Source: Balanoglossus misakiensis
Lineage: Eukaryota; Animalia; Hemichordata
Direction: 5' to 3'
NCBI GenBank assembly: GCA_040954595.2
Contig: CM082577.2
Location: 15,321,903 to 15,385,902 of the forward strand
DNA length: 64,000 nucleotides
The translations under genes and the position numbers were made by a program. The stretch's first letter is position 1. Every line of letters begins with the position of its first letter. Of the stretch, positions 1 to 59,277 are shown piece by piece. The notes beneath the pieces are model-generated. The model saw nothing but the letters and a program-made list of their open reading frames with translations, was not told where the DNA came from and did not search any database.

Positions 1-132
1 CCCACGTGACCGCCTCGTGATACCCAAAGTAGTGTGTAATTTGTTCAACTTAAGATCAACTGAGACACAGATTCCTTTACTCTGAGAAACAAGCATGGTA
101 TATATTGGAACAAATTGACGCAATCTACTTAC

Positions 133-690
133 AATCCGTTCATTGCCACATTTAATTCCGGCAACTAGTCCTATGCCTGACACATTTGATGGTGTGGGAT
201 CGATTACTAGTCTGAGTCCAGATGTTAAGAGGTGCTCGCTGACGTCAACTCGTTTTTCGACCAATTTATCTAGCGTTATGTCGGCAAACAGTCTCTCGCT
301 AGATGTATCAATAAAATCTGCCACACCGAGGCACTCGCGTTCATAGGTTCCTTTTGCCAAGATGTCCATTAATATTCTGACTGGATTTCCTTCGCTAGAA
401 TCAATGTGCCTTGGAACCAGGTGGAGTTTATGGATACATACACCATGTACACCTTTCGATACACATTCTGAACACATGTACGTTTGAACGATCGACTTGA
501 CAAGGGGTTTCCCCCCCCATGACATGTCCAACAATTTATAGGACCAGTGTTCTCTGTTTGCCATAGATGAAGTAAATAAAACCGACACTGTTTTAGGCTG
601 AAAAATGGGCGCAGAAGTGATCAATGAATTATGTTTTACCCACGGAAACTCGTCCACCCAACCAAAACTACAACCGGCTCCTCTGGCAGC
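133..690 (-). CDS. Terminase large subunit (herpes UL15/UL89-like), internal exon with Walker B, motif III and start of the nuclease domain
   Basis: Manual translation: AARGAGCSFGWVDEFPWV..VLFTSS..YMCSEC..GVCIHKLHLVPRHID..TYERECLG..LVIDPTPSNVSGIG. This parallels herpes GIRGQ..VDEA..IFISS..YVC..LYVYLDPA..SGTG. Acceptor tatatttcag at 700-691, donor GTAAGT at 132-127, both phase 0 (186 codons). Confidence 0.85.
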
Positions 691-820
691 CTGAAATATA
701 TAATGATGAATATATATAAATATTAGTTAACAACGTTCACTTTTATGACGCTTAAGTGGGGTTGCTATACGTTTTAAACCCAGTGTAACAATGCATCCAT
801 CACATTAATACCACGTCGCA

Positions 821-1753
821 TTGACCTGTGCACAACGGTTTGATATGGAATTGGCTACGCGAACTGCTTTCCTGAGACAACACAACATAGGTGTATTTCA
901 CGTGGATATACAGCACAAGTGCACGGGCCAGTGTACAATGTTGAATCCATACGGCGTGGGGATGCATTACATATGTACGACTTCATTGAAATATCACAAC
1001 TGTGACGCAGACAGCGATCGGGACTGCCTGTTGGTTTGCACCGACGAAGGTCAAATTTGTAAACTGACCGGCCATGTCATACAAGGTAGCCAGGCGGCAA
1101 ATGTTTATGTTGGCCTTGATAAACCAATGTATCCACACCCTTCCACCAGTTACGATCACAGTCGAATATCTGTGATACACAAAGACCAGAAAATGGAACT
1201 TTTATGTCACACGCTCGCTAGCACTATCTCAAAGTTGTTTCATGCAGACAATCGACGAAAATACAACCAGCTCACGAGGGTTCATTCTCGCTGCATCAAC
1301 ACAGCGTGCGCAAGGATAAAATGCGATCTATTAGAAGGACGTATGTCTTTTCCACAAGCATTACATCACCATATAAACAGTGCCGTGTACATTTTACATC
1401 AATTATTTTTCCCATACTCGCTGTTATCTACACTGGAAGCTTACGAGAGAAAAGTTATTTCAATTGTGTTGTCACACGTGCAAGGGAATCATGGTCGTGG
1501 CGGGGACATTTCCATCCTTCTGGGAAATCCAGAAGCGACAGTATTGTACATTACGAAATGCGTGCTCGAAGGTTTTGGATGCGCAGGCTCCAATATATTT
1601 GACCCGATTTTCCGGTACATGGGACCGATGCCTTTGGATCGTCATTTGAAAGAAGTGTTTGATATAAATCCGCATAAGTTAACAAAGTGTTCCAAAATAC
1701 TACAGGTAGTAATGACAAAATCATCGTGCATCCGAGCATTAAACAACATGTAG
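821..1753 (+). CDS. UL92/ORF31-like Cys-rich late transcription factor (likely start ATG 845)
   Basis: YICTTSLKYHNCDADSDRDCLLVCTDEGQICKLTGHV matches the herpes UL92 pattern YxC..HxCD..CxLVxTxEGxxCxxTGxV. Confidence 0.65.
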   Translation: MTCAQRFDMELATRTAFLRQHNIGVFHVDIQHKCTGQCTMLNPYGVGMHYICTTSLKYHNCDADSDRDCLLVCTDEGQICKLTGHVIQGSQAANVYVGLDKPMYPHPSTSYDHSRISVIHKDQKMELLCHTLASTISKLFHADNRRKYNQLTRVHSRCINTACARIKCDLLEGRMSFPQALHHHINSAVYILHQLFFPYSLLSTLEAYERKVISIVLSHVQGNHGRGGDISILLGNPEATVLYITKCVLEGFGCAGSNIFDPIFRYMGPMPLDRHLKEVFDINPHKLTKCSKILQVVMTKSSCIRALNNM

Positions 1754-2262
1754 TCAATGCCATACCCTCATATAGTCGCACTGAATTTCAAGGTTGTATT
1801 TCAGAAGACGCGCTTTACTAGCAACTACGCATGCGCAACTATTATTGTCATTGTGATTTTGCTGATCCTAGAAGTAGTCAATGCCATACCCTCATATAGT
1901 CGCACTGAATGTCAAGGTTGTATTGCAGAAGACGCGCTTTACTAGCAACTACGCATGCGCAACTATTATTGTCATTGTGATTTTGCTGATCCTAGAAGTA
2001 GTCAATGCCATACCCTCATATAGTCGCACTGAATGTCAAGGTTGTATTTCAGAAGACGCGCTTTACTAGCAACTACGCATGCGCAACTATTATTGAAACT
2101 GACGCCGTGATTTCGCTGAGCCTAGAATTAGTCAATGCCATACCCTCATATAGTCGCACTGAATGTCAAGGTTGTATTTCAGAAGACGCGCTTTACTATC
2201 AACTACGCATGCGCAACTATTATTGACGATGACGCCGTGATTTTGCTGAGCCTACCCTTATA
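1751..2262. repeat. Tandem ~124-130 bp repeat, about 4 copies, upstream of the first IAP-like gene
   Basis: tagtcaatgccataccctcatatagtcgcactgaat recurs at 1751, 1875, 1999 and 2129. Confidence 0.95.
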
Positions 2263-2304
2263 TAGCGATGTTACCAACTCGCAGCCCGTCATATTGCTAT
2301 CGCC

Positions 2305-3201
2305 ATGGCATCGTCGGGTGGTTCTCCATACCCTAGTGAAGTTTATAAATCAACGAGTTCCCGAGAGTTAAGTATCAGAGAAAGTTTATTGTTCACTGAC
2401 AGCAGCTGTGTGGCCCTGGCTGAATCAAATCTGTACGTGAACACTGCTCGGCGTGTCCGATGTATTTGCTGCAAATTCAAACCTCGATACTGTTTTTCAC
2501 AAGCGCAAATAGGAGACTTGGTCTTCGAGCATTATGTGTTTAACCAATCCTGCTACAGCCATAATGAACACCGATATCCGAGAAGTGTACATGACAAAAT
2601 GGACGGGTTGGGTCGCCTGTTGGCATTGCGTGAACTAAGGTTTACATTCGTTGAACTGATACGCCATTTGCGACAACGCAGGCCAGACGATAGGTTCGAG
2701 GACCTTGTGTTCATGGCTATATACTGCATATCAGTAAACATTGTCGGTCCTGACGTTCATGTAAAAAGCATTTCTCTTTCTGCTATGAAGAACTATGCAC
2801 GTCGCCATAACTATTATGAGCCAATGCGCAGATCCTTGTCTAACTACTTACACAAGGCCTTCGTGCAAGTCGTTGGTGATTTTCCTTGGGCAAACGTCCA
2901 CCAACTATGTAGGGAAGCCTTTTCAAATCAAACGTTTATATTAGAATATTCCAGAACACGGGTTTCGTGCGACTTATGCCGTTTCAGCTTAGAACAGGTC
3001 CCATTACCACCGGATATCAAGGCCAAGTACATTTGTTGTAAAATATGTCTCGACAACCCCATCACGTTAATTGGTCAGTGCGGTCACCCAATGTGTGAGT
3101 CGTGTTATAATAAAATGGCGTCAGTAAGTCCTGGTGGACAGTGTCCGTTTATTTTCTGTCAACAATCATTAGATTCCTTTATTGCTATAAGATTCCCGTA
3201 A
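2305..3201 (+). CDS. IAP-like protein: N-terminal BIR-like CCHC domain plus C-terminal C3HC4 RING
   Basis: LAESNLY..VRCICC..EHYVFNQSC (BIR-like); CKICLDNP..CGHPMCESC..CPFIFC (RING). Confidence 0.7.
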   Translation: MASSGGSPYPSEVYKSTSSRELSIRESLLFTDSSCVALAESNLYVNTARRVRCICCKFKPRYCFSQAQIGDLVFEHYVFNQSCYSHNEHRYPRSVHDKMDGLGRLLALRELRFTFVELIRHLRQRRPDDRFEDLVFMAIYCISVNIVGPDVHVKSISLSAMKNYARRHNYYEPMRRSLSNYLHKAFVQVVGDFPWANVHQLCREAFSNQTFILEYSRTRVSCDLCRFSLEQVPLPPDIKAKYICCKICLDNPITLIGQCGHPMCESCYNKMASVSPGGQCPFIFCQQSLDSFIAIRFP

Positions 3202-3227
3202 AGTGTTATGGGTGTTGGCGGGACCTG

Positions 3228-3415
3228 AGCGAGTCGCACTGAATTTCAAGGTTGTAATTCAGAAGACGCGCTTTACTAGCAAACACGCATGCGCAACCAT
3301 TATTGACAATGACGCCGTGATTTTGCTGAGCCTATAAACAATCGTAGCTGATCGTCAATGCCATACCCTTATATAGCGATGTTACCAACTCGCAGCCCGT
3401 CATATTGCTATCGCC
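3228..3415. repeat. Further copy of the 124-bp repeat family plus the promoter shared by the two IAP-like genes
   Basis: agtcgcactgaatttcaaggttg..cgcatgcgcaac..gtcaatgccatacccttatatagcg matches 1751-2304. Confidence 0.9.
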
Positions 3416-4333
3416 ATGGCATCGTCGGGTGGTTCTCCATACCCTAGTGAAGTTTATAAATCAACGAGTTCCCGAGAGTTAAGTCTCAGAGAAAGTTTAT
3501 TGTTCACTGACAGCAGCTGTGTGGCCCTGGCTGAATCAAATCTGTACGTGGACACTGCTGGGCGTGTCCGATGTATTTGCTGCAAATTCAAACCTCGAGA
3601 CTGTTTTTCACAAGCGCGAATAGGAGCCTTGGTCTTCGAGCATTATGTGTTTAACCAATCCTGCTACAGCCGTAATGAACACCGATATCCGAGAAGTGTA
3701 CATGACAAAATGGAACATATTGGTTACATGTTGAAATTAGGGCGAGAGCGTGGACTAAGGTTTAAATTCATTAAACTGTTACGCCACTGCAGACAACTCA
3801 GGCCATCCTGTCCATTCCAGGAAATTGTGATTATGGCTATATACTGCATCTCAGTGCACATTGTCGGGCCTGCCGTTCGTGTAAATCACATTTCTCTTCC
3901 TGCTATGAAGAACTATGCACGTCGCCATATAGATGTTGGCAAAATGCACGGACCCTTGGTTGACTACTTACACAAGGCCTTCGTGCAAGTCGCTGGTTAT
4001 GATCCTTGGACAAACCCCCACGAACTATGTAGGGAAGCATTTAAAAATCAAAGGTTTTACTTTTGTGACGGAGGCTGTGCTCGGTGCGATGTATGCAATT
4101 TCATGTTAGAACATGTCGTACCACCAGCTGATATAGATGACAATTACATTTGTAAAATATGTTACCACAAACCCGTCACATTAGTTTCTAATTGCGGTCA
4201 CCCTATTTGTGATGGTTGTTATACTAGGGTGAGGTTTTCAGACATTCCAAATCTGTGTCCGTTCTGTCGACAACCATTGCACTCCTTTATAACTATAAAA
4301 TTTATGTGTTGTGTCGGTGTTTGCGGGACCTGA
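3416..4333 (+). CDS. IAP-like BIR-RING protein, tandem paralogue of 2305-3201
   Basis: First ~100 aa are nearly identical to the paralogue; RING CKICYHKP..CGHPICDGC..CPFC. Confidence 0.7.
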   Translation: MASSGGSPYPSEVYKSTSSRELSLRESLLFTDSSCVALAESNLYVDTAGRVRCICCKFKPRDCFSQARIGALVFEHYVFNQSCYSRNEHRYPRSVHDKMEHIGYMLKLGRERGLRFKFIKLLRHCRQLRPSCPFQEIVIMAIYCISVHIVGPAVRVNHISLPAMKNYARRHIDVGKMHGPLVDYLHKAFVQVAGYDPWTNPHELCREAFKNQRFYFCDGGCARCDVCNFMLEHVVPPADIDDNYICKICYHKPVTLVSNCGHPICDGCYTRVRFSDIPNLCPFCRQPLHSFITIKFMCCVGVCGT

Positions 4334-4334
4334 G

Positions 4335-4441
4335 CGAGTCGCACTGAATTTCAAGGTTGTATTCCAGAATACACGATTTACTAGCAATTAAGCCTACGCA
4401 ACTATTCTTTATTATGACGCTGTGATTTTGCTGAGTCTAGA
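4335..4441. repeat. Degenerate copy of the 124-bp repeat family
   Basis: gagtcgcactgaatttcaaggttgtatt..gtgattttgctgagtctag. Confidence 0.85.
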
Positions 4442-4934: not shown

Positions 4935-7019
4935 ATGAGTGCCATGGATGAAAATGTACAGCTCGTGGTTGGGAGAAACGTGTACAGTTTCTTTACCCAC
5001 AAAGTTTGCCAGTCTATTCCTTACATAGAAAGTATGATGCAGTTTGAGCGCATGCGGTCGAGTTATAACGGCGTCTTGCAACTCAGCAATTCAAACATTC
5101 CAGACACACACTGGCACTTATTTCTCGGTTTTTTAAATTTAGGTAGAATACCACCTCTTGTTCGATACACAGATGTTAATGGCGGCGCAGCTACTTTCGC
5201 CATAGAAGAACACAATCTGGCGGAAGTTGCAGTAACAGCGGACTTCTTGCTCATGACGTCATTTACTCGGGCCCTCTCCCAGTTAATATTAGAAAGGTCC
5301 ACGCTCTTTTCTGGTAATTGCGTTCAGTCTATGCACAATCTATTTATATTTTTCGATCAGATCAGTCGAAAAATACCGCACGAAAACGACTTGATAGACA
5401 CTGCGGCTGCATTGTGTGCTCAAGTCACGGCAAATTTTCGGGGCGTTTCTGTCGGAAGGTTATGGTGTTTAGACACGTTAAGGCGATTTGTATTACGCAG
5501 GAATAGATTTATGGGGACCGAGAGAGACATATACACCACCGTGTATTGTTGGTTTGAACATTACAGACGTGAATTTGAGGCGAATAGCAACCCGTTATCG
5601 TTTATCGAAATATTGTTGGCCATATGGCCCAACACTCCCATCCTCCAGTCGGAGATATATGACTTGGCATTTGGTATTATTATGAGATATCTTGGGCAAG
5701 AGAACGGCTTAACGAAATACATAGATAACATATCTCATGAATTGTCTGATCGGGAACTCTTTGGTATAAACATACAACCATCCGACATTCACCATCGTAT
5801 CGTGGAAGCACATGCAAAAACTATTCTTGATTCCATTAAAGCTACTTGGCGAAAAAACTACAAGCAACCTATAGATTGTACATATTCATATTTATTGATG
5901 GATCGAGATAAACTTCAATCTTACAATATGTACACAAATAACTGGTCGGATCTGCCCAATACGGATATGTTCTACAATAGTATATTTCCACCACCATCAT
6001 CAAAATGTAGGCTATATGACGTCATGGTTGTCAGTGAAAGAAATAGTGTGTTTTGTCTGTTTAGACAAGATAACTTTTTGGTTCTTATTGTGAACCATAT
6101 TGGGGATAACGATAGCCTTGTTTTGGGAGAATGTGGCTGGAAAGTTGTGTTCAATATAGCATTACAGCTAGGGGGGCTACCGTTGAATCCGCGTGGGTTT
6201 TACCAAATGTGCAACTTCGAGGAGTTTCTCATCATGAAAGATTCTACATCTCCGCATATAACGTGTGTTCACAGAGAAGGGCCGTGGAAAACGTTCAGGG
6301 ATTGCAATGTACTGTTTTCAACGACGTACATCAGTGTCAAACCTGAATGGGAAATAAGAGACAAAACAATATGTCCAGTGTATTCAGGCGAGAACCATCA
6401 TAAGTTGTTTTGCGACATCTATGTTGTTGGCCCGGCATCCGAGTTATCCTTGTGCGTGTTAACGGTGGAGATCGATAAAATATGCTGCAAAACACACATA
6501 GAATACGACCTTGTTGAGCAGAGGGTGCTTTTTGGTATGAAGTTAGAACGTTCAATAGCCACCCCCGACCTTGAAGAAGGGAATTACATGCCTTCACTGT
6601 TCTTCTTATCAGCAATAGGGCTGGTGTGTTTGGGTAGGTTGAATATATCACACGACCGACAAGGACAGTATATGTTGATAAACATTCAGTGTTACAAGTA
6701 CATCAAACACGACCAGTGTTGGGAACGCATTGATTTGTCGCATGGGTCATTCCAAACAGATGCATCTTGGGAAAGTGTTAGTCTGGAGTATAGTACACAG
6801 TCGCACGCGCTACCTCTCAAGGGTCATCTTGACGGGCCTCACACGTTGGTATTGTATGACGGGGACCGTCAAGAGAACCACGTAAAGCATTTATTTTCTC
6901 GAATGAACGTCGTAATAGATTTGTCAATACAAAATATAGAGGTTCGACCGCTATGTTCAGGTAGGATTACTTGTCCGTGTTCTCAGCATGGTAACCGAGA
7001 CGGCAAAATATCTATGTAA
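4935..7019 (+). CDS. BTB-BACK-Kelch-like protein (Cul3 adaptor-like)
   Basis: BTB-like VQLVVG..THKV..SIPYIESM..ADFLLM; BACK-like ERDIYTTVYCWFEH; kelch-like SYNMYTNNWSDLP. Confidence 0.65.
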   Translation: MSAMDENVQLVVGRNVYSFFTHKVCQSIPYIESMMQFERMRSSYNGVLQLSNSNIPDTHWHLFLGFLNLGRIPPLVRYTDVNGGAATFAIEEHNLAEVAVTADFLLMTSFTRALSQLILERSTLFSGNCVQSMHNLFIFFDQISRKIPHENDLIDTAAALCAQVTANFRGVSVGRLWCLDTLRRFVLRRNRFMGTERDIYTTVYCWFEHYRREFEANSNPLSFIEILLAIWPNTPILQSEIYDLAFGIIMRYLGQENGLTKYIDNISHELSDRELFGINIQPSDIHHRIVEAHAKTILDSIKATWRKNYKQPIDCTYSYLLMDRDKLQSYNMYTNNWSDLPNTDMFYNSIFPPPSSKCRLYDVMVVSERNSVFCLFRQDNFLVLIVNHIGDNDSLVLGECGWKVVFNIALQLGGLPLNPRGFYQMCNFEEFLIMKDSTSPHITCVHREGPWKTFRDCNVLFSTTYISVKPEWEIRDKTICPVYSGENHHKLFCDIYVVGPASELSLCVLTVEIDKICCKTHIEYDLVEQRVLFGMKLERSIATPDLEEGNYMPSLFFLSAIGLVCLGRLNISHDRQGQYMLINIQCYKYIKHDQCWERIDLSHGSFQTDASWESVSLEYSTQSHALPLKGHLDGPHTLVLYDGDRQENHVKHLFSRMNVVIDLSIQNIEVRPLCSGRITCPCSQHGNRDGKISM

Positions 7020-7070: not shown

Positions 7071-8801
7071 GTGTGTTCAAGTCAGACGTTCAGTCGTTTT
7101 CTATCGCTGAACCAAGAACTGTGTACGATGGCTAATATACTGAAATACTCGAGTCGACTTGCGTTTGATCCCATAACCCCGGAATTGTTAAACATATTCG
7201 CGGACAATGATATTAAATGTCCAAACGTCTGTTCCAGAGAGTATAACTCCAGAAGTTTATCGTATCTCCTGTGTAAGACGGGATCTCAAGCGTTCCCAAA
7301 TTACGATATAAGTAAATTCAAACTTATCGATTCCAAAGCTATCCTGAGTGGCGACGTGGACATCTTTTTATCTGAACTGGTTCACACGCCATTCTTTGCT
7401 AGCATTGCTATGCGTATAATAGCAGAGGTTACCGGAAGAGCCTATAACAAATACGATCCAATGGTGAAAGACGACAGACAGTGGGTAATGAAAGCTATAG
7501 AAGAAACTGATTGCAACCAACCAAATGACATTTTCAACTTGACTGGACTACGTCTCGAAAAGAAGAAACTCAAAAAAGACAAGGCTGACACTGGTTCGAA
7601 CAAGTTTTCACATTATGATGTTGTTTTCCAATTTGGTGACAGCGCAAAAGTAGTAACACTACCAGGAGATTGTGATGATAACATTGTAGATTGTTTTGAT
7701 GCGACTGACAAAATTGTGGCGCGTCCTGCCTTACAGACGACAGAATTGAAGACGGGCACACAGCTAGTCGGATATTCCAACGTTTCGTTTAAGGGTAACT
7801 TTTGTATCACAGACGAAGAATTGGATACTGTCAAAGGGCAGATGAAATCACGTGGTGGTTCCTTGATAGGTGCAAACCATCTACGACAGATTGATAGTGC
7901 CCGCTATATAATAGGGCTGTCATGTCGTTTTGGCGAATATGGAAACATGAAATTTCTGAAACTTCAGTTAGTCTATCTGATCGTTCAGTGTAGATATTTA
8001 TATCTCTGCATGATTGAAGACAAAGACAACCCTCTCTATTCAGAAGTCAGACTGAGAGATGATGTTGACTTGAACACTTTCAGTTCGTTGTTTACGCAAG
8101 AACTACGGAAACTTTTTTACGGAGAAAACGACAACATAGGCCGTAAACTCAAATTGGCTGATGATATGCCCACATCAATATACAACAAACACCTTGCTTC
8201 AGTCACCATGAGATCTTTTTATGAAGTCGGTCTCGAACAAAGAAACGGGAATCTGTTGGCGAAAGAAGCTATAAACACCAGTGCCGACGTTCAAAGTCAG
8301 GTTGCAGCGTTTTCCGATGTATTACGGCGTTCTAAGAGAGAATATAAACCTCTGCATATAGTCTACCACCCAGCTGTTGTACCAATGAACCGCGATAAAA
8401 GTAGCATAAGGGTTCCGCAGAATGTGAGGATTTACATAAGTGACTCGAAACGCGAGTCCAATGACCCGCCAGATGCCATGAATGCCGCCCTCAAAATAAT
8501 CTGTTACGGCAGTAAAGAGATAAAAAAAAACGTGGTGATGTCGTCGTTGTTAGACTCTGTCCAAGTTGTGCCATGGAAAGCTGTCTTTGAGAAAGATACT
8601 TCTTTGCAACAATCTACCGAATTAGACCAATCTAGTCTTGCACTCGCTGTCCAGAATATCGTTTGCCATTTGAATAGCAGTGAAGAAGAAGCGTGTGAAA
8701 TGCTAGCCATCCCATGGGCCGATTATCTGGCGTCTAAAAACGAACAGTTGGCTATCTGTGCCGAGCCCGACGCCAAACGCATGCGAATTACAAGTAATTA
8801 G
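7071..8801 (+). CDS. Hypothetical protein, C-terminal NLS-like PDAKRMR (likely start ATG 7128)
   Basis: 576-codon ORF, TATATAA at ~7061, AATAAA downstream; no family recognised. Confidence 0.75.
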   Translation: MCSSQTFSRFLSLNQELCTMANILKYSSRLAFDPITPELLNIFADNDIKCPNVCSREYNSRSLSYLLCKTGSQAFPNYDISKFKLIDSKAILSGDVDIFLSELVHTPFFASIAMRIIAEVTGRAYNKYDPMVKDDRQWVMKAIEETDCNQPNDIFNLTGLRLEKKKLKKDKADTGSNKFSHYDVVFQFGDSAKVVTLPGDCDDNIVDCFDATDKIVARPALQTTELKTGTQLVGYSNVSFKGNFCITDEELDTVKGQMKSRGGSLIGANHLRQIDSARYIIGLSCRFGEYGNMKFLKLQLVYLIVQCRYLYLCMIEDKDNPLYSEVRLRDDVDLNTFSSLFTQELRKLFYGENDNIGRKLKLADDMPTSIYNKHLASVTMRSFYEVGLEQRNGNLLAKEAINTSADVQSQVAAFSDVLRRSKREYKPLHIVYHPAVVPMNRDKSSIRVPQNVRIYISDSKRESNDPPDAMNAALKIICYGSKEIKKNVVMSSLLDSVQVVPWKAVFEKDTSLQQSTELDQSSLALAVQNIVCHLNSSEEEACEMLAIPWADYLASKNEQLAICAEPDAKRMRITSN

Positions 8802-8998: not shown

Positions 8999-9667
8999 TT
9001 ACACTAAATGTTTAGTCGACCCTGGTAGATTATTATATTTCGGGTTGCTAGTCTCATTCAAAGTCCACACTAGCATATCGGTTACAGTTGACGCAGAACA
9101 GTTCGCCATCAGATTGACATCCACGAATTTATCCACGTTTAGAACCACCCAGCAGGCACGAAGCAAAGGTTCTAGAGATGTACAGACAGCAATGTGAATT
9201 AGTTCATCCGAATTTTGGCTATGACTAGTTAAGAAATTATCCAATGAGCCATATTTCAGCCACTTGTTCGCGCTCATATTATGCCAAAGCGCAACTCTGT
9301 CCGGCAAGGCCCTCAAACACGACAGTTTATTTGTTTGAACACCGGACCACATACAAACGCCATCGTCGCAATAGTCCAATTTTTTCCTTTTGGAAGGTAC
9401 AGGTATATGCGCTGAAGTCTTTGGGACAAACACGTGCGTTTCCATCAATTGAAATAATTCTTGGCTAGACATAGTACCGGCGAACCATCTCAGATGTACG
9501 TCTTGAGCCTGCATTGCCCAGTAGTCGTCGAATTCATCCTTTGCGGTCATATATCGGATGACGATATCATCGCTAACCTTTCCCTCATTACAATTAGATT
9601 GAAATAGTGTATCGTGCAAATAGGCGTCTCTGAGGACAATGTATTCATCGAACGATGTCGCACTCAT
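8999..9667 (-). CDS. Hypothetical protein with NLS-like PSKRKK
   Basis: 222-aa ORF with TATATAA about 45 nt upstream. Confidence 0.7.
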   Translation of the reverse strand: MSATSFDEYIVLRDAYLHDTLFQSNCNEGKVSDDIVIRYMTAKDEFDDYWAMQAQDVHLRWFAGTMSSQELFQLMETHVFVPKTSAHIPVPSKRKKLDYCDDGVCMWSGVQTNKLSCLRALPDRVALWHNMSANKWLKYGSLDNFLTSHSQNSDELIHIAVCTSLEPLLRACWVVLNVDKFVDVNLMANCSASTVTDMLVWTLNETSNPKYNNLPGSTKHLV

Positions 9668-12274: not shown

Positions 12275-14173
12275 ATGGGTCGATATGGTTTGGCTCATAT
12301 TGTAACCGATGTCAAAAGACACGCTTCTGAAATTAGGGACCCTGTGTACGGCGTGCTTGCAGCGGACGTCAACAGGTGGCGATTAACAAAACTCCCTGTC
12401 CGATGGGAGCATGTACACGGGAGAGGAGAAGGTAGTGAGGACATTGGAAAGTCTTCTATACTATCGAGTAAGGGTATTGGTTACGTGAAAAACTGGTGGC
12501 TCGATTTTTCGTATCCAGGATCATATTTTGCAGTGGCCGTTTTATTGGAATTGGATGCCAAAGACTATATACAGAGTCCATTCTCTAGCGTGTTTAATAG
12601 CGTGTCATTGAGTCAAGATGCGAAGAATCGAGGGAAGTGCTTCGACATATCTCTAGTCAGAACTGGAGCAAGACATGGTACGCGTGCCTTGTTCTTTGAT
12701 GACCTCAATCAAGTTCGTTTGGCAAGTCGCAAATATTTTGGTTTAGACTCAACTTTCACGGATGTCGTAAGTAAATACAAAGCGATCCGCGGGAGATATA
12801 ACGCATACAGATCGAACGGTGGCTGCAGACTAAAGTATAAACGTGCAACATCCAACCAACATAATGTCAATATGGACGGTAGGGCGGACGGCAAAGCGTT
12901 GAATCATGAGGAACTGGAAATGACTAACCAGTTTACAAGTAAGCAAGATGCAGATCACGATACGCATGACACCCGAAAGGAAGGCGAAACACGACTGATA
13001 CACATGTTAGGACAAAATAATGAAAAGGCCACTGTCCATGAGAGGACAGACTCGCCACGCACTCCTGCACCTAACACTGAAAATTCGCTGGCTAAGGAGT
13101 TGGCGTTAGTCAGCAAATTGGCACAGAATCTTCCCAAAGAGGACGCTGTACAGTTGATGGAACTGTTTGAGAATCGGGACGAGAAAATAAATTCCATGGA
13201 CAATATGGCGTTGACCATGTCGTTACAAGTTCAGAAAATCTTGCAACTAGTCAGTAACATAATGGACGAACAAAACACACCGGAATCCAGGAAACGCAGG
13301 GATGATCTTATGGAACTCCGTCAAAAACTCACCAGAGAGCCCATGGATCAAGGTCATATAAACGCCTCATTTTCGAAACTTGGTGAATCATACCAAGACA
13401 TATCGAAGGAAGCAAACAAGGTTCCCAGAGCATCTATGGACGAGGCAGTCAGTAATAAACTGATCGACTACTATAAACGTGTTACTAACGTGCTCAAGAA
13501 GCAATCAAACCCGGATACAATAAGTGAATCCAATATGTCCTCTTTGAGTAAAGATCAACAGGAACGCATGGCTAGAATTAAACAACATATGTCAGAAAGC
13601 CCAGACATATACCAATACATACAGTCACTAGAGGCGGCAGTGGATAGTAGTCTACTCCAAGGTATACGTGAAAAATCCCCGCGACCACACGGTAGTCTGT
13701 CGCGTCATGCTGCGCAACAAAATGCTACCTATAGAGACCGCGACGATGGGTATTCGCCACATTATCACACGCAAAAAATCACGGGACCTAGTCAGGAGCC
13801 CTACCAACGGCGTCAACCAACGCATGAGTGTATGTGTGAGGATTGTCAGCCCATACGTCACACCAAATCTCCCCACCTGCAGAACCGACGCCAAGGATCT
13901 CCGCAAGACCCCATAAAGACCCATCAATCTAAGCACAATTCTGAAGCTATGCAACAGCGCAAAGATGCGACCCAGTGTGATCGACAGCAAGACTGTACTG
14001 CAAAATCGTGTCGCCAACCGGACTCCGAGGATAAAATCGACGCCAGTTTCAGTGGTCATTCGGAGCACCAACAGACATTCTGGAAATTGAGGAAGCCAAT
14101 AGTATACGATAATGATTTTCCGGAAGGATTTTGTGACGACGGACCACCAATAGTCAAGAGAATCAAACATTAG
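12275..14173 (+). CDS. Capsid maturation protease (assemblin/HK97 prohead type) fused to a scaffold-like region
   Basis: LPVRWEH (His), SVSLSQ (Ser) and FDISLVRTGARHGT (oxyanion-loop-like) in the first ~150 aa; coiled-coil/low-complexity C-terminus; upstream of the MCP. Confidence 0.7.
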   Translation: MGRYGLAHIVTDVKRHASEIRDPVYGVLAADVNRWRLTKLPVRWEHVHGRGEGSEDIGKSSILSSKGIGYVKNWWLDFSYPGSYFAVAVLLELDAKDYIQSPFSSVFNSVSLSQDAKNRGKCFDISLVRTGARHGTRALFFDDLNQVRLASRKYFGLDSTFTDVVSKYKAIRGRYNAYRSNGGCRLKYKRATSNQHNVNMDGRADGKALNHEELEMTNQFTSKQDADHDTHDTRKEGETRLIHMLGQNNEKATVHERTDSPRTPAPNTENSLAKELALVSKLAQNLPKEDAVQLMELFENRDEKINSMDNMALTMSLQVQKILQLVSNIMDEQNTPESRKRRDDLMELRQKLTREPMDQGHINASFSKLGESYQDISKEANKVPRASMDEAVSNKLIDYYKRVTNVLKKQSNPDTISESNMSSLSKDQQERMARIKQHMSESPDIYQYIQSLEAAVDSSLLQGIREKSPRPHGSLSRHAAQQNATYRDRDDGYSPHYHTQKITGPSQEPYQRRQPTHECMCEDCQPIRHTKSPHLQNRRQGSPQDPIKTHQSKHNSEAMQQRKDATQCDRQQDCTAKSCRQPDSEDKIDASFSGHSEHQQTFWKLRKPIVYDNDFPEGFCDDGPPIVKRIKH

Positions 14174-14207
14174 CGTGAGAGAATAATTTACAACACAGGA
14201 AGAAAGA

Positions 14208-46842: not shown

Positions 46843-48462
46843 ATGGCCGAACTATTCAGTGTTTCAATAAGGAGGCCGGTCAGTATCATTTTGTAATACC
46901 TTTTCCGTATTTTTACATCTTCGGGTGGCATAACCCCCACCTTTTATTTCTTTACTTAGGTGAGTATGTGGCATTTGAGACACGTAAATAAGGACGCGAA
47001 ATGTAAAGCTATGGGAATAGCCAAGAAATTAGAGACAGCGCCCACTAGCGGCCGAAAAACAATGTCGAAAGGTGAGTATCGCGCGTTCGTCAGATATGCG
47101 TTATATTTAATGGTTTTGCGTTTCTGTGCGGTCGTTGATGACCGAGCCAATGATCCGTGTAAAATCAGCACCCATACTTCGAGATATCGGTGGTTTCTTG
47201 AACCATTGTATTTTATTCCGGTTTCAGGCACGAACATCGTTCTACACAATTCAGTACAGTGTTCACAGCCCTTACCCGAAACCTCTCACGTATTGGACGC
47301 CTTGACTAGAGTACATTGTGTGATTGAAGGCTGTTACAACCCAAGTGCCAGAATAGTCAGCACCGATAATGTACACGGTCTAATGCACGCTGTGCAGATG
47401 GCATACAGAAAAAGCTATCCGTTGGTTTTGAGTCCAGATATTGTGTGGTTGTGTATTTCACAAGGATTTATGCAACACATGTGCTCCGACGACCGTTTGT
47501 ACCGCCTACTAATCAAAACTCACGAGAATACAAGCGTTGAATCTACCATGTCCCACCTCGACGACAAGTCAGAATTTGGGGAATGGAAAACTGCGTTAAT
47601 CGACTTGTCAAACCATGTTCGCGAAACCCTAGGAGAGTGTAATTACGGAATGATGACACCAGACTTTACCACAACCAGCCTACAAGATAAAATTGTAGGA
47701 GATTTGACAGTGTCTGCCCAAGTGGACCCGAAGTTTTCGTATTTGCTGCAACCAGGTGAAGTAAAAAATCAGCGTCCTTTGACTTCGAATGGAATTCCCT
47801 CTATTTTTTTAGAAGGCTGCCTAGATGATTGGACGGCGATCCGGCGTAATACTGTCAAATTGGGGTGTTATGATCTGAACTGGTGGACCGATGGTGTGGT
47901 AAAAATTCTTGACAAATTTATAAAGGCGAAAGAAGGAGTGATCGACAGAGAATTCTGGTCAGGCATATATGAGGCAAGTATTGTAAAGGAGATTGCATGA
48001 ATTATTGTATTTACCCCTCTTAGTTGTTTCGAGTATCAATTATTTTGAACCATGTATATGTATTCCGCGGTTACAATCATAACACGTTTGTGTTTTGGGG
48101 GTTTTCTGTGGGGTGGGGGGTGGGGGTGGAATACCATCCCTTATACATCGTCTCTTTCGCTCTCTCATTATCAGATGGTTGAGTACCCATGTGGCCCATG
48201 TATCACCGGGTGGATCGTCGACCTGTTTCCGTATTTCATGTACAAACAGGACCGAGAATCAACAATACTGGCGGACTCTTTTCCATCTGGTCTGTCGATA
48301 AACCCTTTCAACGTGGGACAATCCGCAGAAGTCTCGAAACTGGCGCTTGTAAGCGGGTTCATGGGAGTATCTCAAGACGCTGATACACTAGCTCTCAGAC
48401 CGGAATTGGGATGGGTCGTTCTCAACCACAACAAGAACAACGGCTCACCGACCAAGATATAA
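46843..48462 (+). CDS. DUF4419-like protein, 4 exons (46843-46878, 46960-47071, 47228-47973, 48175-48462)
   Basis: GLMHAVQMAY..PLVLSPDIVWLCISQGF; PDFTTT; GIPSIFLEG..DW; FWSGIY|..GPCITGWI..FP; SGFMG..LRPELGW. Splice sites are phase-compatible; the last intron is GC-AG. Confidence 0.75.
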
Positions 48463-53345: not shown

Positions 53346-56300
53346 TTAATACATTGGGGCTTTATAACCCCCAAACTCGCCATTGTCTTCCAACCCGTCG
53401 TGTCCTTCAACAATTTTAGACTTTACAGTAGGTGCCAGCTTGAAAATATTAGTTTGGGGGGTTACCGCGTCAACTTCGTTTGAGATTTCAACAAACCTTG
53501 AATCGCGCAGCTTGTTAACAATTAGGTCAATTTCATTGTCATCGACTGAACGAGGGAAATATCGACGAATGTCGAATAAATAAAACGGTTCCTGTTTGGA
53601 TGTCGATGCAAAATCTAACACAGGTTTCTCTAAGGTCTCGCGTATTTTAATCTTGAAGTCGTTGACGGCCTTCTCGTCTTTTAATAAAACCGTGTCATAG
53701 TCTGTAGAACTCACAAGCACCTGCCTTGACTTGTTTTTAATGTCAAACGATTCTCTGGACATCAATGGCTGCTTACATAGATTAAATTGTATGATGTTTA
53801 ACTGACGTCGATTGTATACCGGTGTCTTACAAATAGGACAGGACACTTGTTCAACGTTCTCATCAAAGGCGTTCACTCTCATATATTCTTGCAAGCACGT
53901 TTCGTGGAAAAGATGACATCCATTCCAACAGTCTATCACGTTATTTTGTTCAGAATATTTTATTAATTCTTTGTCTGACATTTCTTCTCCGTGATCCCGT
54001 CTCAATCTCAACTCGCGACAGTTTATCGCCTGCAATTGCCGGTATGGCCCCAGCTTATCCAAACATAGGGCGCAATTCGTGGCCTCCCATTCTCCGCGTT
54101 CGTATTCCGGGGATGTGCAATCCGAAGAAGGTTCCGTGAACGACGTGTCGTAATAAGATTCGTCAAAGAGGACAACGCACTTATAAGGGTCACCACATCT
54201 GTAATAACGCTTTCGGAATAGGTTTATCTGGGCACCGGTTCTGTTTTGATTTAACATATTGAATAAATTTACTACACACGACGTCCACAGTGCAAAAAAA
54301 TTTCCAGGTCTAACCAAACACCCGCTGACACATTGACTTTGTGTGCGATGTTGCAGAAAAGATACGCCTTCCTTACTGAGATGGAACGTATCAGAGAAAA
54401 ATTTAACCACTTCCGATTTGACAGAAAGTATGGCATCTTGGGTAGGAGTTTTGGAATGTACCATCAGATATTTTATCAAATAGCAAAGTCCATAAAAACA
54501 ATCGTTGGGGTTAATTTGAATTTCACGCGGATCCAGTAATACAAGTCGGCGGTCATTAGCTGGACGCAATTGTCCAGGACCGTGTTTTTCACGAAGGGTT
54601 GTTGAAGCACCATGAAATGGCACTCTGGAAAACACTCGTCCATAGCCCACACCTGTAGTAGTTCCGATTGGAATTAATTGACAACTGCTCTCGGAGTTTG
54701 TAGGTGGCTTTGTCAAAACACTGTCGTTTTGTTGTAACGGGGCCGATTGAGAATTTCCATCTCGGTCGTGATCACTTCTCCTACTGGCTGTGACAATCGG
54801 TGTACAACTACCCCGCAGTTCAACGGGACAAGTTAGGCGTGGCTTTGTCAAAACACTGTCGTTTTGTTGTAACGGGGCCGATTGAGAATTTCCATCTCGG
54901 TCGTGATCACTTCTCCTACTGGCTGTGACAATAGGTGTACAACTACCCCGCAGTTCAACTGGACAAGTTTGACGTGGCTTTGTCAAAACACTGTCGTTTT
55001 GTTGTAACGGGGCCGATTGAGAATTTCCATCTCGGTCGTGATCACTTCTCCTACTGGCTGTGACAATCGGTGTACAACTACCCCGCAGTTCAACGGGACA
55101 AGTTAGGCGTGGCTTTGTCAAAACACTGTCGTTTTGTTGTAACGGGGCCGATTGAGAATTTCCATCTCGGTCGTGATCACTTCGCCTACTGGTTGTGACA
55201 ATAGGTGTACAACTACCCCGCAGTTTAACTGGACAAGTTTGACGTGGCTTTGTGCACAGCATAGGATCTAACCCCTTTTCTGCACTCTGCACACCAGTAC
55301 CAAACGAAGTTGCTTGTTTATCGTCATCCTCACTGTCATCTGAAGATGAAGACCATTTTGTCAATTCGGGATGTGTTAAGGTGGAGTTGTCGACACGCTC
55401 TATCCTTTTTTTAATAGCACACAGCTCACTTCCGCGCGCCGTGTCCTGACCGACATTCCTTTGTCTTCTGTTACAAAGCCGATTGGCCAATACGCTAGCG
55501 CGGATGGTTGACTCGGTGCGATCTCCCTCGTGTACTTCCAATTGTAACACTTTATCAGAGTGAAGACTAAAATCTCGTCCCGCACACCTTTGGAGAGAGT
55601 TCTGAAAGTCAACATCCGCCAGGTGTATTGCCTTCCATTGCTGACTGGAAAATACAGATTCCTCGCACTTTCGTCTGAAATCAGCAACAGAATTGTTTTC
55701 GTCTGTTCTTTGTTTCAACACGGACAACCACATTTCATGCAACATGTTGTATTTAGTGTCGTCGATAACTCCCAGTTTACCCGCATGTAGATGCCTACTG
55801 AGCGTGGTTAACGTACGATCCATTGCTTTACAAAGGTCCCCATCACTTGTGTCTCGAATGCATTTTTGCAAGCGTGTAATTTCAGCCCCTAAATTGTTAA
55901 GTTTGGTTGAATTCTGTGTATGTATCTTGACGAATTCTTTACACCTTTCACCTAGGTTCGGCATTCTCATGCATAAATCTCTATTTAACATTCTCGGGTT
56001 TCGATCAAGCCATTTATTTTCGTCAGAGAAATGGTAGAAATCGGCGGTAGAACACGCATCAATACTCTTAACTTCTTCAATCTGTTCCTCTGTATATCCG
56101 TGATCTCGCAATATATGCCTATTTAAGGACCGTTCATTATGAAAGCGGTCGTGGCAATTACGTATTCTACAAGTAAATCGAAACCCTAGTAAGACTTCCT
56201 GGGTTTTCGCGTATGGTCCTAATTCTTCCATAAGAACTCGTATTTTCCGGCGTCTGTCCGGTTGGTCTTCTGCAAGCAAGTCGAAGTGGCTGACTGATTC

Positions 56301-57293
56301 CGACAAACCAAACACTCTGACGTTGGTGAGTGACCAATCAAACGTGGACAGGTACTCTGTTAAACCACGAGTGTGAATAAATCCATATTTCTGTCGCAAA
56401 TGTTCTAAAAGGACATGGAAATAGCACACTCCTCGTGGTTGATTGTCATTATCAGCCAAGAAATAAATGCAATCGGAAACAATAGTTTTGGGGACATTCG
56501 CCACTAATTTATCGCCATGCATTCGGACAAGTGTGACGTTGTTATTACAAGTATCGCAGTTGACAACGCTTCTAAGACGGCCTAGGAAAAATACGCATGT
56601 TTGAAATCCCAGGTTTCGTTCCTTTAGGTTAGTCATTGAGACATAGTCGCCACTGGTCAATGCCCTTTGCAAGAATCGCCATTGGTCGCGCATAAACGCG
56701 GGTTCTCCAATCAAGATAGAATGGGGTCGGTTAAGCATGGCCCTTGACAAGATCATACTGTGATCTCTGTCGCTAAACGTGTAAAACTTATCAAGGCCAC
56801 TGGTGTCTCTCATGTCATTAACCCATTCGGGGTACACTGTGTGTGTCTCTCTCTGTTCGTCGTTTGTCTTCATGCGCTTGTTAGCACTCTTGGTGTCTCC
56901 GTCACTCGCGTTCACGAGTGGACTGAGAGTCGTCGACAATGCTCGAACGAAATCAGCTTGACTCGCGTATATGCCATACAGACTGAAATTTTTTGGTCTC
57001 ATTACCATCTCGTTGATTAGTTGATATAAATCAATCCGGAACCCGGGTGTCGGTTGACCAGTAGAAAATTCACGGGCCATGTTAGCAATTTGATTAATAG
57101 TCAAACAATCATGTTGGCTGACAACTTTGTATATCTTTTCAAGAAACGTGTGCAATGACTTTTCTTGCACAGTGGTCGAGTCAGTGTTCAGTTTATCGAT
57201 GGTAGATGAAGGTTTCCGCCCAGAGCCTGAGTCGACGCCAAACACCAATAAAACGTCTTTACTGAGTTCTGGATAGAGCGGGGACAGATTCAT
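53346..57293 (-). CDS. Large protein with C2H2 zinc finger, 45-aa repeats and a split RING-H2
   Basis: CRIRNCHDRFHNERSLNRHILRDH; CALC..(insert)..CHLFHETC..CPIC. Confidence 0.8.
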   Translation of the reverse strand: MNLSPLYPELSKDVLLVFGVDSGSGRKPSSTIDKLNTDSTTVQEKSLHTFLEKIYKVVSQHDCLTINQIANMAREFSTGQPTPGFRIDLYQLINEMVMRPKNFSLYGIYASQADFVRALSTTLSPLVNASDGDTKSANKRMKTNDEQRETHTVYPEWVNDMRDTSGLDKFYTFSDRDHSMILSRAMLNRPHSILIGEPAFMRDQWRFLQRALTSGDYVSMTNLKERNLGFQTCVFFLGRLRSVVNCDTCNNNVTLVRMHGDKLVANVPKTIVSDCIYFLADNDNQPRGVCYFHVLLEHLRQKYGFIHTRGLTEYLSTFDWSLTNVRVFGLSESVSHFDLLAEDQPDRRRKIRVLMEELGPYAKTQEVLLGFRFTCRIRNCHDRFHNERSLNRHILRDHGYTEEQIEEVKSIDACSTADFYHFSDENKWLDRNPRMLNRDLCMRMPNLGERCKEFVKIHTQNSTKLNNLGAEITRLQKCIRDTSDGDLCKAMDRTLTTLSRHLHAGKLGVIDDTKYNMLHEMWLSVLKQRTDENNSVADFRRKCEESVFSSQQWKAIHLADVDFQNSLQRCAGRDFSLHSDKVLQLEVHEGDRTESTIRASVLANRLCNRRQRNVGQDTARGSELCAIKKRIERVDNSTLTHPELTKWSSSSDDSEDDDKQATSFGTGVQSAEKGLDPMLCTKPRQTCPVKLRGSCTPIVTTSRRSDHDRDGNSQSAPLQQNDSVLTKPRLTCPVELRGSCTPIVTASRRSDHDRDGNSQSAPLQQNDSVLTKPRQTCPVELRGSCTPIVTASRRSDHDRDGNSQSAPLQQNDSVLTKPRLTCPVELRGSCTPIVTASRRSDHDRDGNSQSAPLQQNDSVLTKPPTNSESSCQLIPIGTTTGVGYGRVFSRVPFHGASTTLREKHGPGQLRPANDRRLVLLDPREIQINPNDCFYGLCYLIKYLMVHSKTPTQDAILSVKSEVVKFFSDTFHLSKEGVSFLQHRTQSQCVSGCLVRPGNFFALWTSCVVNLFNMLNQNRTGAQINLFRKRYYRCGDPYKCVVLFDESYYDTSFTEPSSDCTSPEYERGEWEATNCALCLDKLGPYRQLQAINCRELRLRRDHGEEMSDKELIKYSEQNNVIDCWNGCHLFHETCLQEYMRVNAFDENVEQVSCPICKTPVYNRRQLNIIQFNLCKQPLMSRESFDIKNKSRQVLVSSTDYDTVLLKDEKAVNDFKIKIRETLEKPVLDFASTSKQEPFYLFDIRRYFPRSVDDNEIDLIVNKLRDSRFVEISNEVDAVTPQTNIFKLAPTVKSKIVEGHDGLEDNGEFGGYKAPMY
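54703..55252. repeat. Intragenic 135-bp tandem repeat, about 4 copies
   Basis: ggctttgt at 54706, 54841, 54976, 55111 and 55246. Confidence 0.95.
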
Positions 57294-57600
57294 TTCATTA
57301 CTTTTCTCGGTTATTCGCCGAAACTGTTTTGGAACGTACGCTAATATCCACTTACAAAAGAGGGCACGGTAGTGTGTAGAGGTAATGTGCTGTAATTGAA
57401 TCTTTGTAAGAACACCTGTCGAGAAAAGTGCCTCATTAAACAGGACTCATCTTCCTTGTTTAATATATATCTTTATGTTTTCATTATCGTCTGCATATAC
57501 AAAATACATTTCAATACCCCACGATTGATAAGAGAGACTGTATCCTATTTATTCACGTGTATGTTTTTGAGGAAGAAACGACCATGTCGTATTCAGTGAA

Positions 57601-58392
57601 TTAGTTTCTTGTACGTGACACCCCTTGAATGCTGTCAGTATCTGCATGGTCTATTAGTAAGTCCGACTCGTAATCGTCTGTAGGATAAGGGTCGTTGTTT
57701 CTAAAATTGATCTCTCTAGTCAGCCTCTTGTGGTGATACAAATGTGTCGCTAAATGTACGAACGAAAACACGGCAATTATAATGAGACCACCCTTTACAA
57801 CGTCTTCACCGAACACTTTACAGAACCCAGTGTCTCTGTAATTGGGCGTCAGAAAACACATGGGTATGCTTTGGGCCGTTACCACAAGAATGCCGATGAC
57901 AAAAAGTGGAAACACATGTATAGCTATTCTCTCTCGCATATGGGGTTCCATGAGAGACTCCAGTATCTTCTCTTCCCCTTTGAAAGTCTTGTAAAGGAGA
58001 TACACTACGTTCAGCATCACGATAGCGCAGTCTATATACGCGGGATACACGCAAAATCTCAATATACCGTATAAATCTGGGATCTTACACGGGTCTCCAC
58101 CCGCTCTTTCACCTTGTACGACTAACATAATGGCTGCGATTGTGAAAAAAACAGCGTACACAAACTTTTGAAGATGAAGTAACAGATGGTCGTGAAATGC
58201 CCTCAGTCCCTTCTGTCTATAAACGTCTGTGACGCCATCATCCAGTCTCTTGAATTCTTGAACAGTTTTTAGGAAAACCTTTCTAGACGAATGCGTTAAA
58301 GTATCCCACCTGTCGCCCATCTGATTCTTAAACGGCCGTTTAGTCACATGTTGTTTACCGACAATCCGGGTATATTTTTTGCCGGGTGTCAT
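57601..58392 (-). CDS. Four-TM membrane protein
   Basis: Four hydrophobic segments with Cys in the loops; TATTAA about 40 nt upstream. Confidence 0.7.
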   Translation of the reverse strand: MTPGKKYTRIVGKQHVTKRPFKNQMGDRWDTLTHSSRKVFLKTVQEFKRLDDGVTDVYRQKGLRAFHDHLLLHLQKFVYAVFFTIAAIMLVVQGERAGGDPCKIPDLYGILRFCVYPAYIDCAIVMLNVVYLLYKTFKGEEKILESLMEPHMRERIAIHVFPLFVIGILVVTAQSIPMCFLTPNYRDTGFCKVFGEDVVKGGLIIIAVFSFVHLATHLYHHKRLTREINFRNNDPYPTDDYESDLLIDHADTDSIQGVSRTRN

Positions 58393-58455
58393 TCTGATTT
58401 ACTTAGTTACTTGTCTAATAACGTCGACGTTAATAGAACTAACCAGTGAATAAGT

Positions 58456-59277
58456 GTGATGTCTCGCGCACACCCTTACACTACTTTAAAAAAAAATCGC
58501 CTCAAGACTTATTTGACAGTAACGCTGGTAGAAAAATGTAAGATAAATATTAAAAGGGCAAGAAAGGGTTACGTGGCTATCGACAAACGGTCTTCTAAAG
58601 AATGTCAGCTCACCGGTGTCTACAAGCAGATCAGAAAATATCATTTACCAGCAGAGTGTTACACAAATATTAAGCTACGACGACAACGGCGATCGCGCAC
58701 ATACAGCACTAAATGCCCAAGGGAAGCCATGTACTTAGGAAAAAACATTGACAAATCAGTCAAACTTATGTTAAAAGAGAAACCTATCGCACACACTCCG
58801 GTGACACAAAGCATATTCAATTCATTGCGATATTTGGGATACACTCCGCTGACAGCACAACTTCCTGTCACAAACTTCCAACCGGATCAACAAGATTGTA
58901 AGTGGGGTGCAACTGTTGGTGTATTAGACCTCGTAGCATACAACCAAGAAAAGAAAATATATACAGCGATTGAACTCAAAACAACCTCTAAACACTACAG
59001 TGATATTAAAAAAGAACACGATTGGGCGAACCTTAATCCTTCGACCGGCTACAGGCGGTCTTTTTATTCTCAAGCGGTACTACAATCCCAGTTAGGAGCT
59101 CTCATGCTAATTAATACATTCAACTTAACAAGCGCTGATAGCTTAGTCATTGTTTATTCTTTCGCAGATAAATCCACCGTTATCGAATGTGTAGGACAAT
59201 TTAATAACACCACGTCGGCATCTGAATTGTTTCCATGGGTTGTAGGTTACAGGAAACAATGTGTACACAGAAGGTGA
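58456..59277 (+). CDS. PD-(D/E)XK nuclease
   Basis: GVLDLVAY..AIELKT..QSQLG. Confidence 0.7.
   Translation: MMSRAHPYTTLKKNRLKTYLTVTLVEKCKINIKRARKGYVAIDKRSSKECQLTGVYKQIRKYHLPAECYTNIKLRRQRRSRTYSTKCPREAMYLGKNIDKSVKLMLKEKPIAHTPVTQSIFNSLRYLGYTPLTAQLPVTNFQPDQQDCKWGATVGVLDLVAYNQEKKIYTAIELKTTSKHYSDIKKEHDWANLNPSTGYRRSFYSQAVLQSQLGALMLINTFNLTSADSLVIVYSFADKSTVIECVGQFNNTTSASELFPWVVGYRKQCVHRR

Follow-up and report, generated by a model that had tools for sequence, protein, structure and literature searches.

A herpesvirus-type genome, probably of an undescribed family, adjoining satellite DNA in a Balanoglossus misakiensis assembly

Contig CM082577.2 of the Balanoglossus misakiensis assembly GCA_040954595.2 contains a 64,000-nt stretch (positions 15,321,903–15,385,902, hereafter the window) in which genes of a large DNA virus, at positions 1–59277, are followed by satellite DNA. 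The locus raises the question of which group this virus belongs to, and whether it sits in an animal chromosome. We read it as a herpesvirus of an undescribed family, probably a recent insertion into an animal chromosome at a place rich in satellite DNA, with a probability of about 0.6 for this reading as a whole. That the virus is of the Herpesvirales type is nearly certain in our judgement, and its place outside the three named herpesvirus families is very likely; a new family of the order is probable.

The viral part is a real, partial and coding-intact genome of a large DNA virus. It contains 35 open reading frames (ORFs), with long frames on both strands, covering 47,037 of 59,277 bases (79% coding), which agrees with the dense long ORFs reported for this interval in an initial annotation made from the sequence alone. 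GC content is flat along the viral part (39–46%), and the observed-to-expected CpG ratio is 1.02, vs 0.44 in the satellite and 0.37 in an internal miniature inverted-repeat transposable element (MITE); the ratio was 0.9–1.17 in 28 of the 29 bins of 2 kb that begin in the viral part, and 0.76 in the bin of the MITE. A degraded viral fossil was rejected, because the ORFs are open and CpG has not been lost. The initial description as largely intact holds for the ORFs seen, but not for the genome: the left window edge cuts through the virus, and no portal, helicase, primase, ribonucleotide reductase (RNR) large subunit, fusion glycoprotein or terminase 5′ exon was identified among the window ORFs of this partly covered genome, the portal having been sought with Pfam and other library scans. 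The Pfam scan of 38 window ORFs labelled 12 above or near the cut-off and gave no match to an RNA polymerase, TBP or heliorhodopsin in this partial genome. A single ORF of the 38, a UL92 homolog, matched a herpesvirus family, and the core set of the Orthoherpesviridae was not found at the sequence level.

The evidence for the group comes mainly from the major capsid protein (MCP), which is encoded in a six-gene capsid cluster shared with L001, a 15.9-kb metagenome contig:

8999–9667, minus strand: first gene of the cluster (222 aa), 37% identical to its orthologue in L001
10591–11499, plus strand: second gene of the cluster (302 aa), 41% identical to its orthologue in L001
11506–12087, plus strand: third gene of the cluster (193 aa), 34% identical to its orthologue in L001
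12275–14173, plus strand: probable maturation protease fused to scaffold; the N-terminal ca. 165 aa are conserved and followed by a helical/low-complexity tail
14208–15128, plus strand: triplex candidate, directly upstream of the MCP gene; 54% identical and also MCP-adjacent in L001
15798–19265, plus strand: MCP (1155 aa), with a predicted herpesvirus-type tower at about residues 475–852

The 1155-aa ORF had no sequence match in Pfam, PHROGs, NCBIfam or PDB, and none of the 16 aligned members of its family matched Pfam Herpes_MCP; one relative matched Phage_capsid_4 at 2.2e-4, below the cut-off. A phage or a giant virus was rejected, as no significant MCP match of either kind was obtained. Structure was more informative. 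The AlphaFold model built from the 16-sequence alignment has a mean predicted local distance difference test score (pLDDT) of 44.7, being better across much of residues 500–850 and below 50 in the floor regions, and its Foldseek alignments to herpesvirus MCPs run over 1000–1150 columns. Against BFVD, Foldseek gave four significant matches, three alloherpesvirus proteins and one unnamed target; the top three were the alloherpesvirus proteins, two of them named MCP (E 1.3e-6 to 2e-5, 10–12% identity). Against PDB there were 12 significant matches, and the 11 listed are orthoherpesvirus capsid chains. An unbiased structure search of 48,161 PDB chains returned only four with Z≥5, all of them herpesvirus MCPs (best Z 18.4, root-mean-square deviation [rmsd] 3.4, 298 residues), the next chain scoring 4.8. 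The 40 entries listed at Z≥8.5 by a second structural alignment were all herpesvirus capsids (best Z 19.3, rmsd 3.5, 306 aligned residues), and the isolated upper domain of herpes simplex virus 1 (HSV-1; 1no7) gave Z 16.2. In the model, residues 475–852 thus superpose on the herpesvirus upper domain over about 300 residues (Z 16–19, rmsd 3.4–3.9), and the predicted tower is of the herpes type; the protein would also possess an HK97 floor. These results support the MCP of about 1150 aa proposed initially, and with it membership of the Duplodnaviria. Since the predicted tower superposes on the herpesvirus domain, identity as a mirusvirus was rejected. The protein is shorter than the significant herpesvirus matches in BFVD (1155 vs 1224–1439 aa), with a tower of about 380 residues vs about 530 in HSV-1.

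By word search, two relatives of the MCP were found, at 51% and 62% identity; 13 matches came from a profile search over 1.84 billion representatives, and cluster look-ups added two more. The 16 sequence relatives in total, some of them fragments possibly from one genome, are all without a name and fall in clusters of one or two members. In a quick tree the MCPs formed three supported groups, the most distant at 20–22% identity. Queries with the MCP, the triplex candidate and the terminase brought up no relative in IMG/VR, none was found in GTDB genomes, and named malacoherpesvirus proteins were absent from the relatives of both the MCP and the DNA polymerase. No description of this lineage was found in the literature, within a coverage that excludes most subscription journals; PMC10827195 and PMC11253617 contributed nothing on it. 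An uncharacterised lineage, as initially suspected, is hence supported.

Contig L001 contains orthologues of 9 of the 35 viral ORFs (33–54% identity), and the order and orientation of the six cluster genes are kept in it; the deoxynucleoside kinase gene, located between the first two of them in the window, is absent from the corresponding place. In L001, coiled-coil and zinc-finger genes (coordinates 2–3820 and 13299–15899) directly flank the capsid cluster, but their counterparts lie far from it in the window, indicating that gene blocks were rearranged. The N-terminal domain of the protease candidate is 51% identical to that of L001 and shows conserved His, Ser and Arg motifs by eye. It had no match in PDB or another library; the one signal from any tool was a match between the L001 orthologue and PF25720 Herpes_ORF28 (E 0.015, below threshold), a family presumably of alloherpesvirus origin. 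The assemblin-like protease of the initial annotation consequently stands by its motifs and by a protease-then-scaffold layout that fits both orthologues, not by a significant database match. Fusion of protease and scaffold is the layout described for the Herpesvirales in general (PMC11565193). The triplex candidate owes its label to its position and to a motif that we take to be that of herpesvirus triplex 2. Its place beside the MCP gene is conserved in L001, but its model (pLDDT 33.7, few homologues) gave no meaningful fold match, and the Atlas gave no usable match for it or for the ORF at 7128. Fold searches listed no triplex or mirusvirus fold, which excludes nothing.

The left end of the window provides two further genes, arranged head to head:

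1–690 (running off the window), minus strand: probable 3′ exon of the terminase ATPase-nuclease, from motifs read by eye
845–1753, plus strand: UL92-family protein (Pfam PF03048, E 8.6e-9, 35.9 bits against a cut-off of 21)

The frame 690–1 opens at a branch-point-like motif and an AG acceptor, with a stop 12 codons farther up, and contains a Walker B-like DE at residue 13, SS-x-x-N and CxxC/HxxC motifs, all identified by eye. Its likeness to herpesvirus terminases is our assumption and not a search result: the exon matched nothing in any database search, Pfam and IMG/VR included, a search for it among longer proteins found none (weak evidence), and tblastn against phages gave only E≥0.9. The proposed terminase exon is accordingly retained as a motif-based candidate. 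Orthoherpesvirus terminases are cis-spliced from two exons a few kb apart. None of the 17 GK[ST] motifs in open frames of 691–59300 was a terminase-type Walker A, although a very divergent one could escape; as no such exon was found in about 58 kb upstream, cis-splicing over a few kb is unlikely, and trans-splicing as in alloherpesviruses is suggested. If frame 690–1 is a terminase, its two halves are likely joined in this way. The terminase split just before Walker B is common to mirus-, ortho- and alloherpesviruses, and mirusviruses and alloherpesviruses are reported to trans-splice there (PMC12768974), so that the intron position does not discriminate families and is not the orthoherpesvirus trait it was first taken for. 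By contrast, the terminases of malacoherpesviruses and of the amphioxus virus are intron-free (PMC2994540); the splice acceptor of the candidate, if a terminase, argues that it is not one of those.

The match to PF03048 confirms the UL92 neighbour noted initially, and the arrangement with the terminase exon presumably resembles that of beta- and gammaherpesviruses. UL92 is one of six late factors with which these viruses use TATT promoters (PMC7162547). The other five had no Pfam match among the window ORFs, and the TATT signal was not significant (7 of 30 starts, a count reached by 79 of 1000 shuffles). The motif TATAWA precedes 11 of 30 starts, a count reached in none of 1000 shuffles. Splice signals of the GT/AG type occur at the terminase, histone and DUF4419 genes, where they were read by eye, and to that extent the spliceosomal introns of the initial annotation stand.

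Three enzymes of DNA synthesis and nucleotide metabolism, all named in that annotation, were recovered by Pfam:

24735–28019, plus strand: family B DNA polymerase (PolB; 3.5e-20), motifs B and C being non-canonical and ExoI lacking its acidic residues
9799–10380, minus strand: deoxynucleoside kinase (1.7e-6)
39964–40983, minus strand: RNR small subunit (1.6e-97)

PolB has one close relative, P0003, at 47% identity. Set against yeast Pol delta, the two proteins retain Asp in motif A, Lys in motif B and the second Asp of motif C. Missing from both are Asn of motif B, the first Asp and Thr of motif C, and the acidic residues of ExoI. Because two distant members have the altered motifs in common, these are a trait of the lineage and not decay. 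From these residues, PolB would rather be an active but non-proofreading enzyme; somewhat less probably, it could be a paralogue without activity, another PolB being encoded elsewhere. A literature search on the altered motifs found nothing relevant. Both proteins end in a Cys-rich tail, by eye like the C-terminal domain of Pol delta. Sequences described from their PolB in invertebrate assemblies, and set between Ortho- and Malacoherpesviridae on that basis, may or may not belong to this lineage.

The genomic setting of the virus is defined by the following features:

41217–42024: MITE with 36-nt terminal inverted arms (located at 41213–42026) and a TTA target duplication on both sides; intergenic, CpG ratio as above
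59314–59335: (TA)n run at the virus–satellite junction; read contigs end at 59307
59333–64000: 452-bp tandem satellite of 10.3 copies, 99.8–100% alike; a host-type repeat
20413–20898, minus strand: CDK5 activator, p25-like core (Pfam 8.4e-87; PDB 3.1e-62); a captured animal gene

The inverted arms and target duplication bear out the internal MITE noted initially; we assume that it is PIF/Harbinger-like. The ten full satellite units differ at one position at most and are of two types, one base apart; Rfam gave one chance match, and the satellite is consequently not a known RNA gene array. Low CpG makes satellite and MITE alike to DNA of a methylated host genome, which the virus is not. CDK5 activators are not known outside animals, and together with the CpG-poor repeats this gene points to an animal host. 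Its core is intron-free and very close to animal p25, and a 42-bp copy of the gene start lies at 19556–19597; we know of no other virus with a CDK5 activator, the literature not having been searched for one. The satellite, the CDK5-activator gene and the altered PolB motifs were not part of the initial annotation.

Reads containing the stretch were found in three runs, of one sample and one study; no RNA run was among those listed. In two of them the depth of the viral part was flat, at 148 and about 446, and the satellite reached 576–901 and 544–985 times that of the viral part, making it a major repeat of the sample; the satellite-to-virus ratio was similar in both libraries, the second having GATC-ended contigs, as Hi-C would give. 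The third run (X3, share 0.06) had no contig on 55300–59780. Read contigs also show a shorter satellite unit of about 270 bp at high depth. The virus ends 55 bases past a stop codon, without a terminal repeat, straight into the satellite, and no integrase, transposase (piggyBac included) or tandem telomere repeat was found in the window.

The relation to known groups can be judged from the MCP and terminase and from four genes of possible host interaction:

45974–46228, minus strand: divergent H3-like histone fold (Pfam 1.5e-9; H3 chains head the PDB list), with a splice acceptor near 46201
2305–3201, plus strand: RING protein of IAP-like layout (RING E 6.8e-6; BIR by eye)
3416–4333, plus strand: tandem paralogue of the former, 65% identical
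22289–22867, plus strand: RING-variant (MARCH-type) ligase with a hydrophobic tail (Pfam 4.6e-13)

The histone was correctly noted at the outset, as was RING; the BIR domain had no counterpart among Pfam families in 2305–2700 (none at E≤10). With the Alloherpesviridae (ranid, sturgeon and cyprinid herpesviruses, Teratorn elements) the virus shares the best structural MCP matches in BFVD, a ranking slightly in favour of this family, and a terminase probably trans-spliced near Walker B; it differs in that MCP identity, at 10–12%, is similar to that with orthoherpesviruses, in the lack of a sequence-level match, and in having an H3-like gene and a match to UL92. Integration of intact herpesvirus genomes is exemplified by Teratorn, which needs piggyBac for it (PMC10175614); the window contains no such transposase. 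Beta- and gammaherpesviruses of the Orthoherpesviridae resemble it in the MCP tower (Z up to 19.3), in UL92 by the terminase 3′ exon and in the triplex candidate beside the MCP, but here the MCP is shorter, the 58 kb upstream yielded no Walker A exon and the TATT signal is not significant. The Malacoherpesviridae and the lancelet viruses AaHV-1 and BelcheriHV-1 have a protease fused to scaffold, for which there is a candidate here, and IAP-like genes, also present in the amphioxus herpesvirus (PMC2994540); they differ in their intron-free terminases. An H3 histone, RING ligases, spliceosomal introns and a terminase split near Walker B are shared with the Mirusviricota, for which H3 is a core gene (PMC10132985) and RING genes and histones are listed as core functions (PMC12768974). 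Their MCP tower insertion is described as substantially smaller than the herpes type (PMC10132985); compared on such descriptions, they have protist hosts, in contrast to the herpes-type tower and the animal gene found here. RING and BIR genes as a malacoherpesvirus sign and the histone as a mirusvirus sign do not, therefore, discriminate, and the bridging lineage built on them was not borne out, since the tower is herpes-type, the Walker B split is common to three groups and accessory genes do not sort families.

Several points weigh against an integrated herpesvirus of a new family. All three runs come from one sample, which may be the source of the window itself, and depth summed over contigs does not give a copy number. 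The junction is not crossed by any read contig: those of both covering runs end at 59307, at the (TA)n run, where repeats are skipped in the contig comparison and a false join could arise. At 56837 and 57255, both within the 1315-aa ORF, these contigs disagree with the window (2 mismatches in about 4000 viral positions covered), a disagreement that may reflect a second copy, a virus population or an assembly error. The same lineage could accordingly be a free or latent episome that the assembler joined to the satellite through the (TA)n run. The undepleted CpG and open ORFs of the virus, its presence in a single sample and the lack of integration genes and telomere repeats agree with this, and a host MITE could insert into an episome as well. 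Set against it are the flat viral depth and the similar satellite-to-virus ratio of two libraries, which fit a fixed stoichiometry, and the direct end of the virus in host-type satellite without a terminal repeat; lancelet herpesviruses, malacoherpes-like, in which about 70% of the sequence is coding and variants are few, are known to be integrated between repeat-rich regions (PMC12373286). An episome appears to us rather unlikely, and true integration at this place fairly probable; endogeneity, as first proposed, is plausible from the adjoining satellite and depth ratio, but no read contig links the virus to host DNA.

As to placement, the position outside the named families would rest on sequence and structure comparisons. 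Taken as a whole, the MCP model has low confidence (mean pLDDT 44.7), its match covers the tower, and Foldseek TM-scores are only about 0.2; terminase, protease and triplex each lack a significant tool match, and TATAWA also occurs in 7 of 30 cases on the reverse strand. For PolB, cellular Pol delta is the better-scoring match (6.8e-18, vs ca. 1e-8 for the HSV polymerase UL30), although these are scores and not a phylogeny. A very divergent member of the Alloherpesviridae, Teratorn-like, or of another named family would account for the alloherpesvirus proteins heading the Foldseek list, the probably trans-spliced terminase and the weak PF25720 match of the protease orthologue; it is improbable, given an MCP identity no higher than to orthoherpesviruses, the mere 13 profile matches among 1.84 billion proteins in small nameless clusters, the missing piggyBac and the intron-free terminases of malacoherpesviruses (PMC2994540). 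Similarly, and with slightly less credence still, a lineage between mirusviruses and herpesviruses could combine a herpes tower with informational genes (H3, a Pol delta-like PolB and the UL92-type factor) from a mirusvirus-like ancestor, as the H3-like gene, the PolB scores and the short MCP and tower would allow. The window has no match to RNA polymerase, TBP or heliorhodopsin, however, the CDK5 activator shows that host genes are captured, so that H3 may have been captured too, and the mirusvirus side is known here by description. We keep to a herpesvirus outside the named families.

The remaining features of the viral part are:

1750–2225: tandem repeat of 124 bp, 3.8 copies, from a tandem-repeat scan
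4935–7019, plus strand: 694-aa ORF, BTB/Kelch-like by eye; no Pfam match
7128–8801, plus strand: 557-aa ORF with no match in any library scan
23098–24366, plus strand: Cys-rich ORF, paralogue of 38045–39394 (E 3e-9 between the two)
28527–35267, minus strand: 2246-aa coiled-coil protein with conserved ends (L001 orthologue, E 4e-33 and 5e-11)
35269–36540, plus strand: ORF with an OTU-like C-terminus by eye; no Pfam match
46966–48462, plus strand: DUF4419 gene (Pfam) in two pieces (profile positions 1–195 and 249–303), with splice signals between
53346–57293, minus strand: 1315-aa protein with C2H2-like and RING-like fingers (37% identical L001 orthologue; weak Pfam matches)
57601–58392, minus strand: membrane protein conserved in L001 (54% identity)
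58459–59277, plus strand: last viral ORF, PD-(D/E)xK nuclease-like (weak matches to YhcG_C, 0.034, and Hjc, 0.19)

The last ORF, at the junction, may by eye resemble herpesvirus UL24. Within 1729–4421, the 124-bp repeat is promoter-like and precedes the first RING gene, with related copies after both RING genes; the pair is a recent tandem duplication, its first 300 bases being 98% alike. Two minus-strand frames at 36865–37765, with a GT donor near 37512, are probably one spliced gene. Intergenic tandem repeats at gene ends (39482–39942, 168 bp; 45580–45884, 128 bp) are possible origins or repeated terminators.

Taken with the TATA boxes, the splice signals and the lack of an RNA polymerase in the window, the virus would replicate in the nucleus using host RNA polymerase II and the spliceosome. 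Its MCP would build a herpes-type capsid around the scaffold, as the predicted tower suggests; from motifs and gene order, this capsid may be matured by the fused protease, stabilised by triplexes and filled by a terminase whose halves are likely joined by trans-splicing. Judging by family labels, the deoxynucleoside kinase and RNR would supply nucleotides, and the RING ligases, CDK5 activator and H3-like histone may act on the host. Since the window shows no integrase, transposase or telomeric array, the virus may have reached the chromosome through accidental DNA repair among repeats, a route also proposed for the amphioxus herpesvirus.

The Herpesvirales comprise three families, only one of them known from invertebrates. 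The L001 orthologues of 9 of 35 ORFs, six of them collinear, and the three supported MCP clades give the relatives a family-like coherence. We tentatively suggest, as a possibility short of even odds, a fourth family near the root of the order, with at least three deep clades, infecting invertebrates and integrating into them, and with a UL92-type factor, an H3-like histone, a trans-spliced terminase and a non-proofreading PolB of altered site. The MCP alignment offers a probe for further members in animal assemblies, and the polymerase, 47% identical to its relative but missing residues retained in family B polymerases, poses a direct question for biochemistry. If the reading is true, the lineage, with its shorter tower and split terminase, would be of use in rooting the Herpesvirales and in testing their origin from mirusvirus-like ancestors, and its UL92-type factor, lying outside the beta- and gammaherpesviruses, would place the origin of late transcription in herpesviruses further back.

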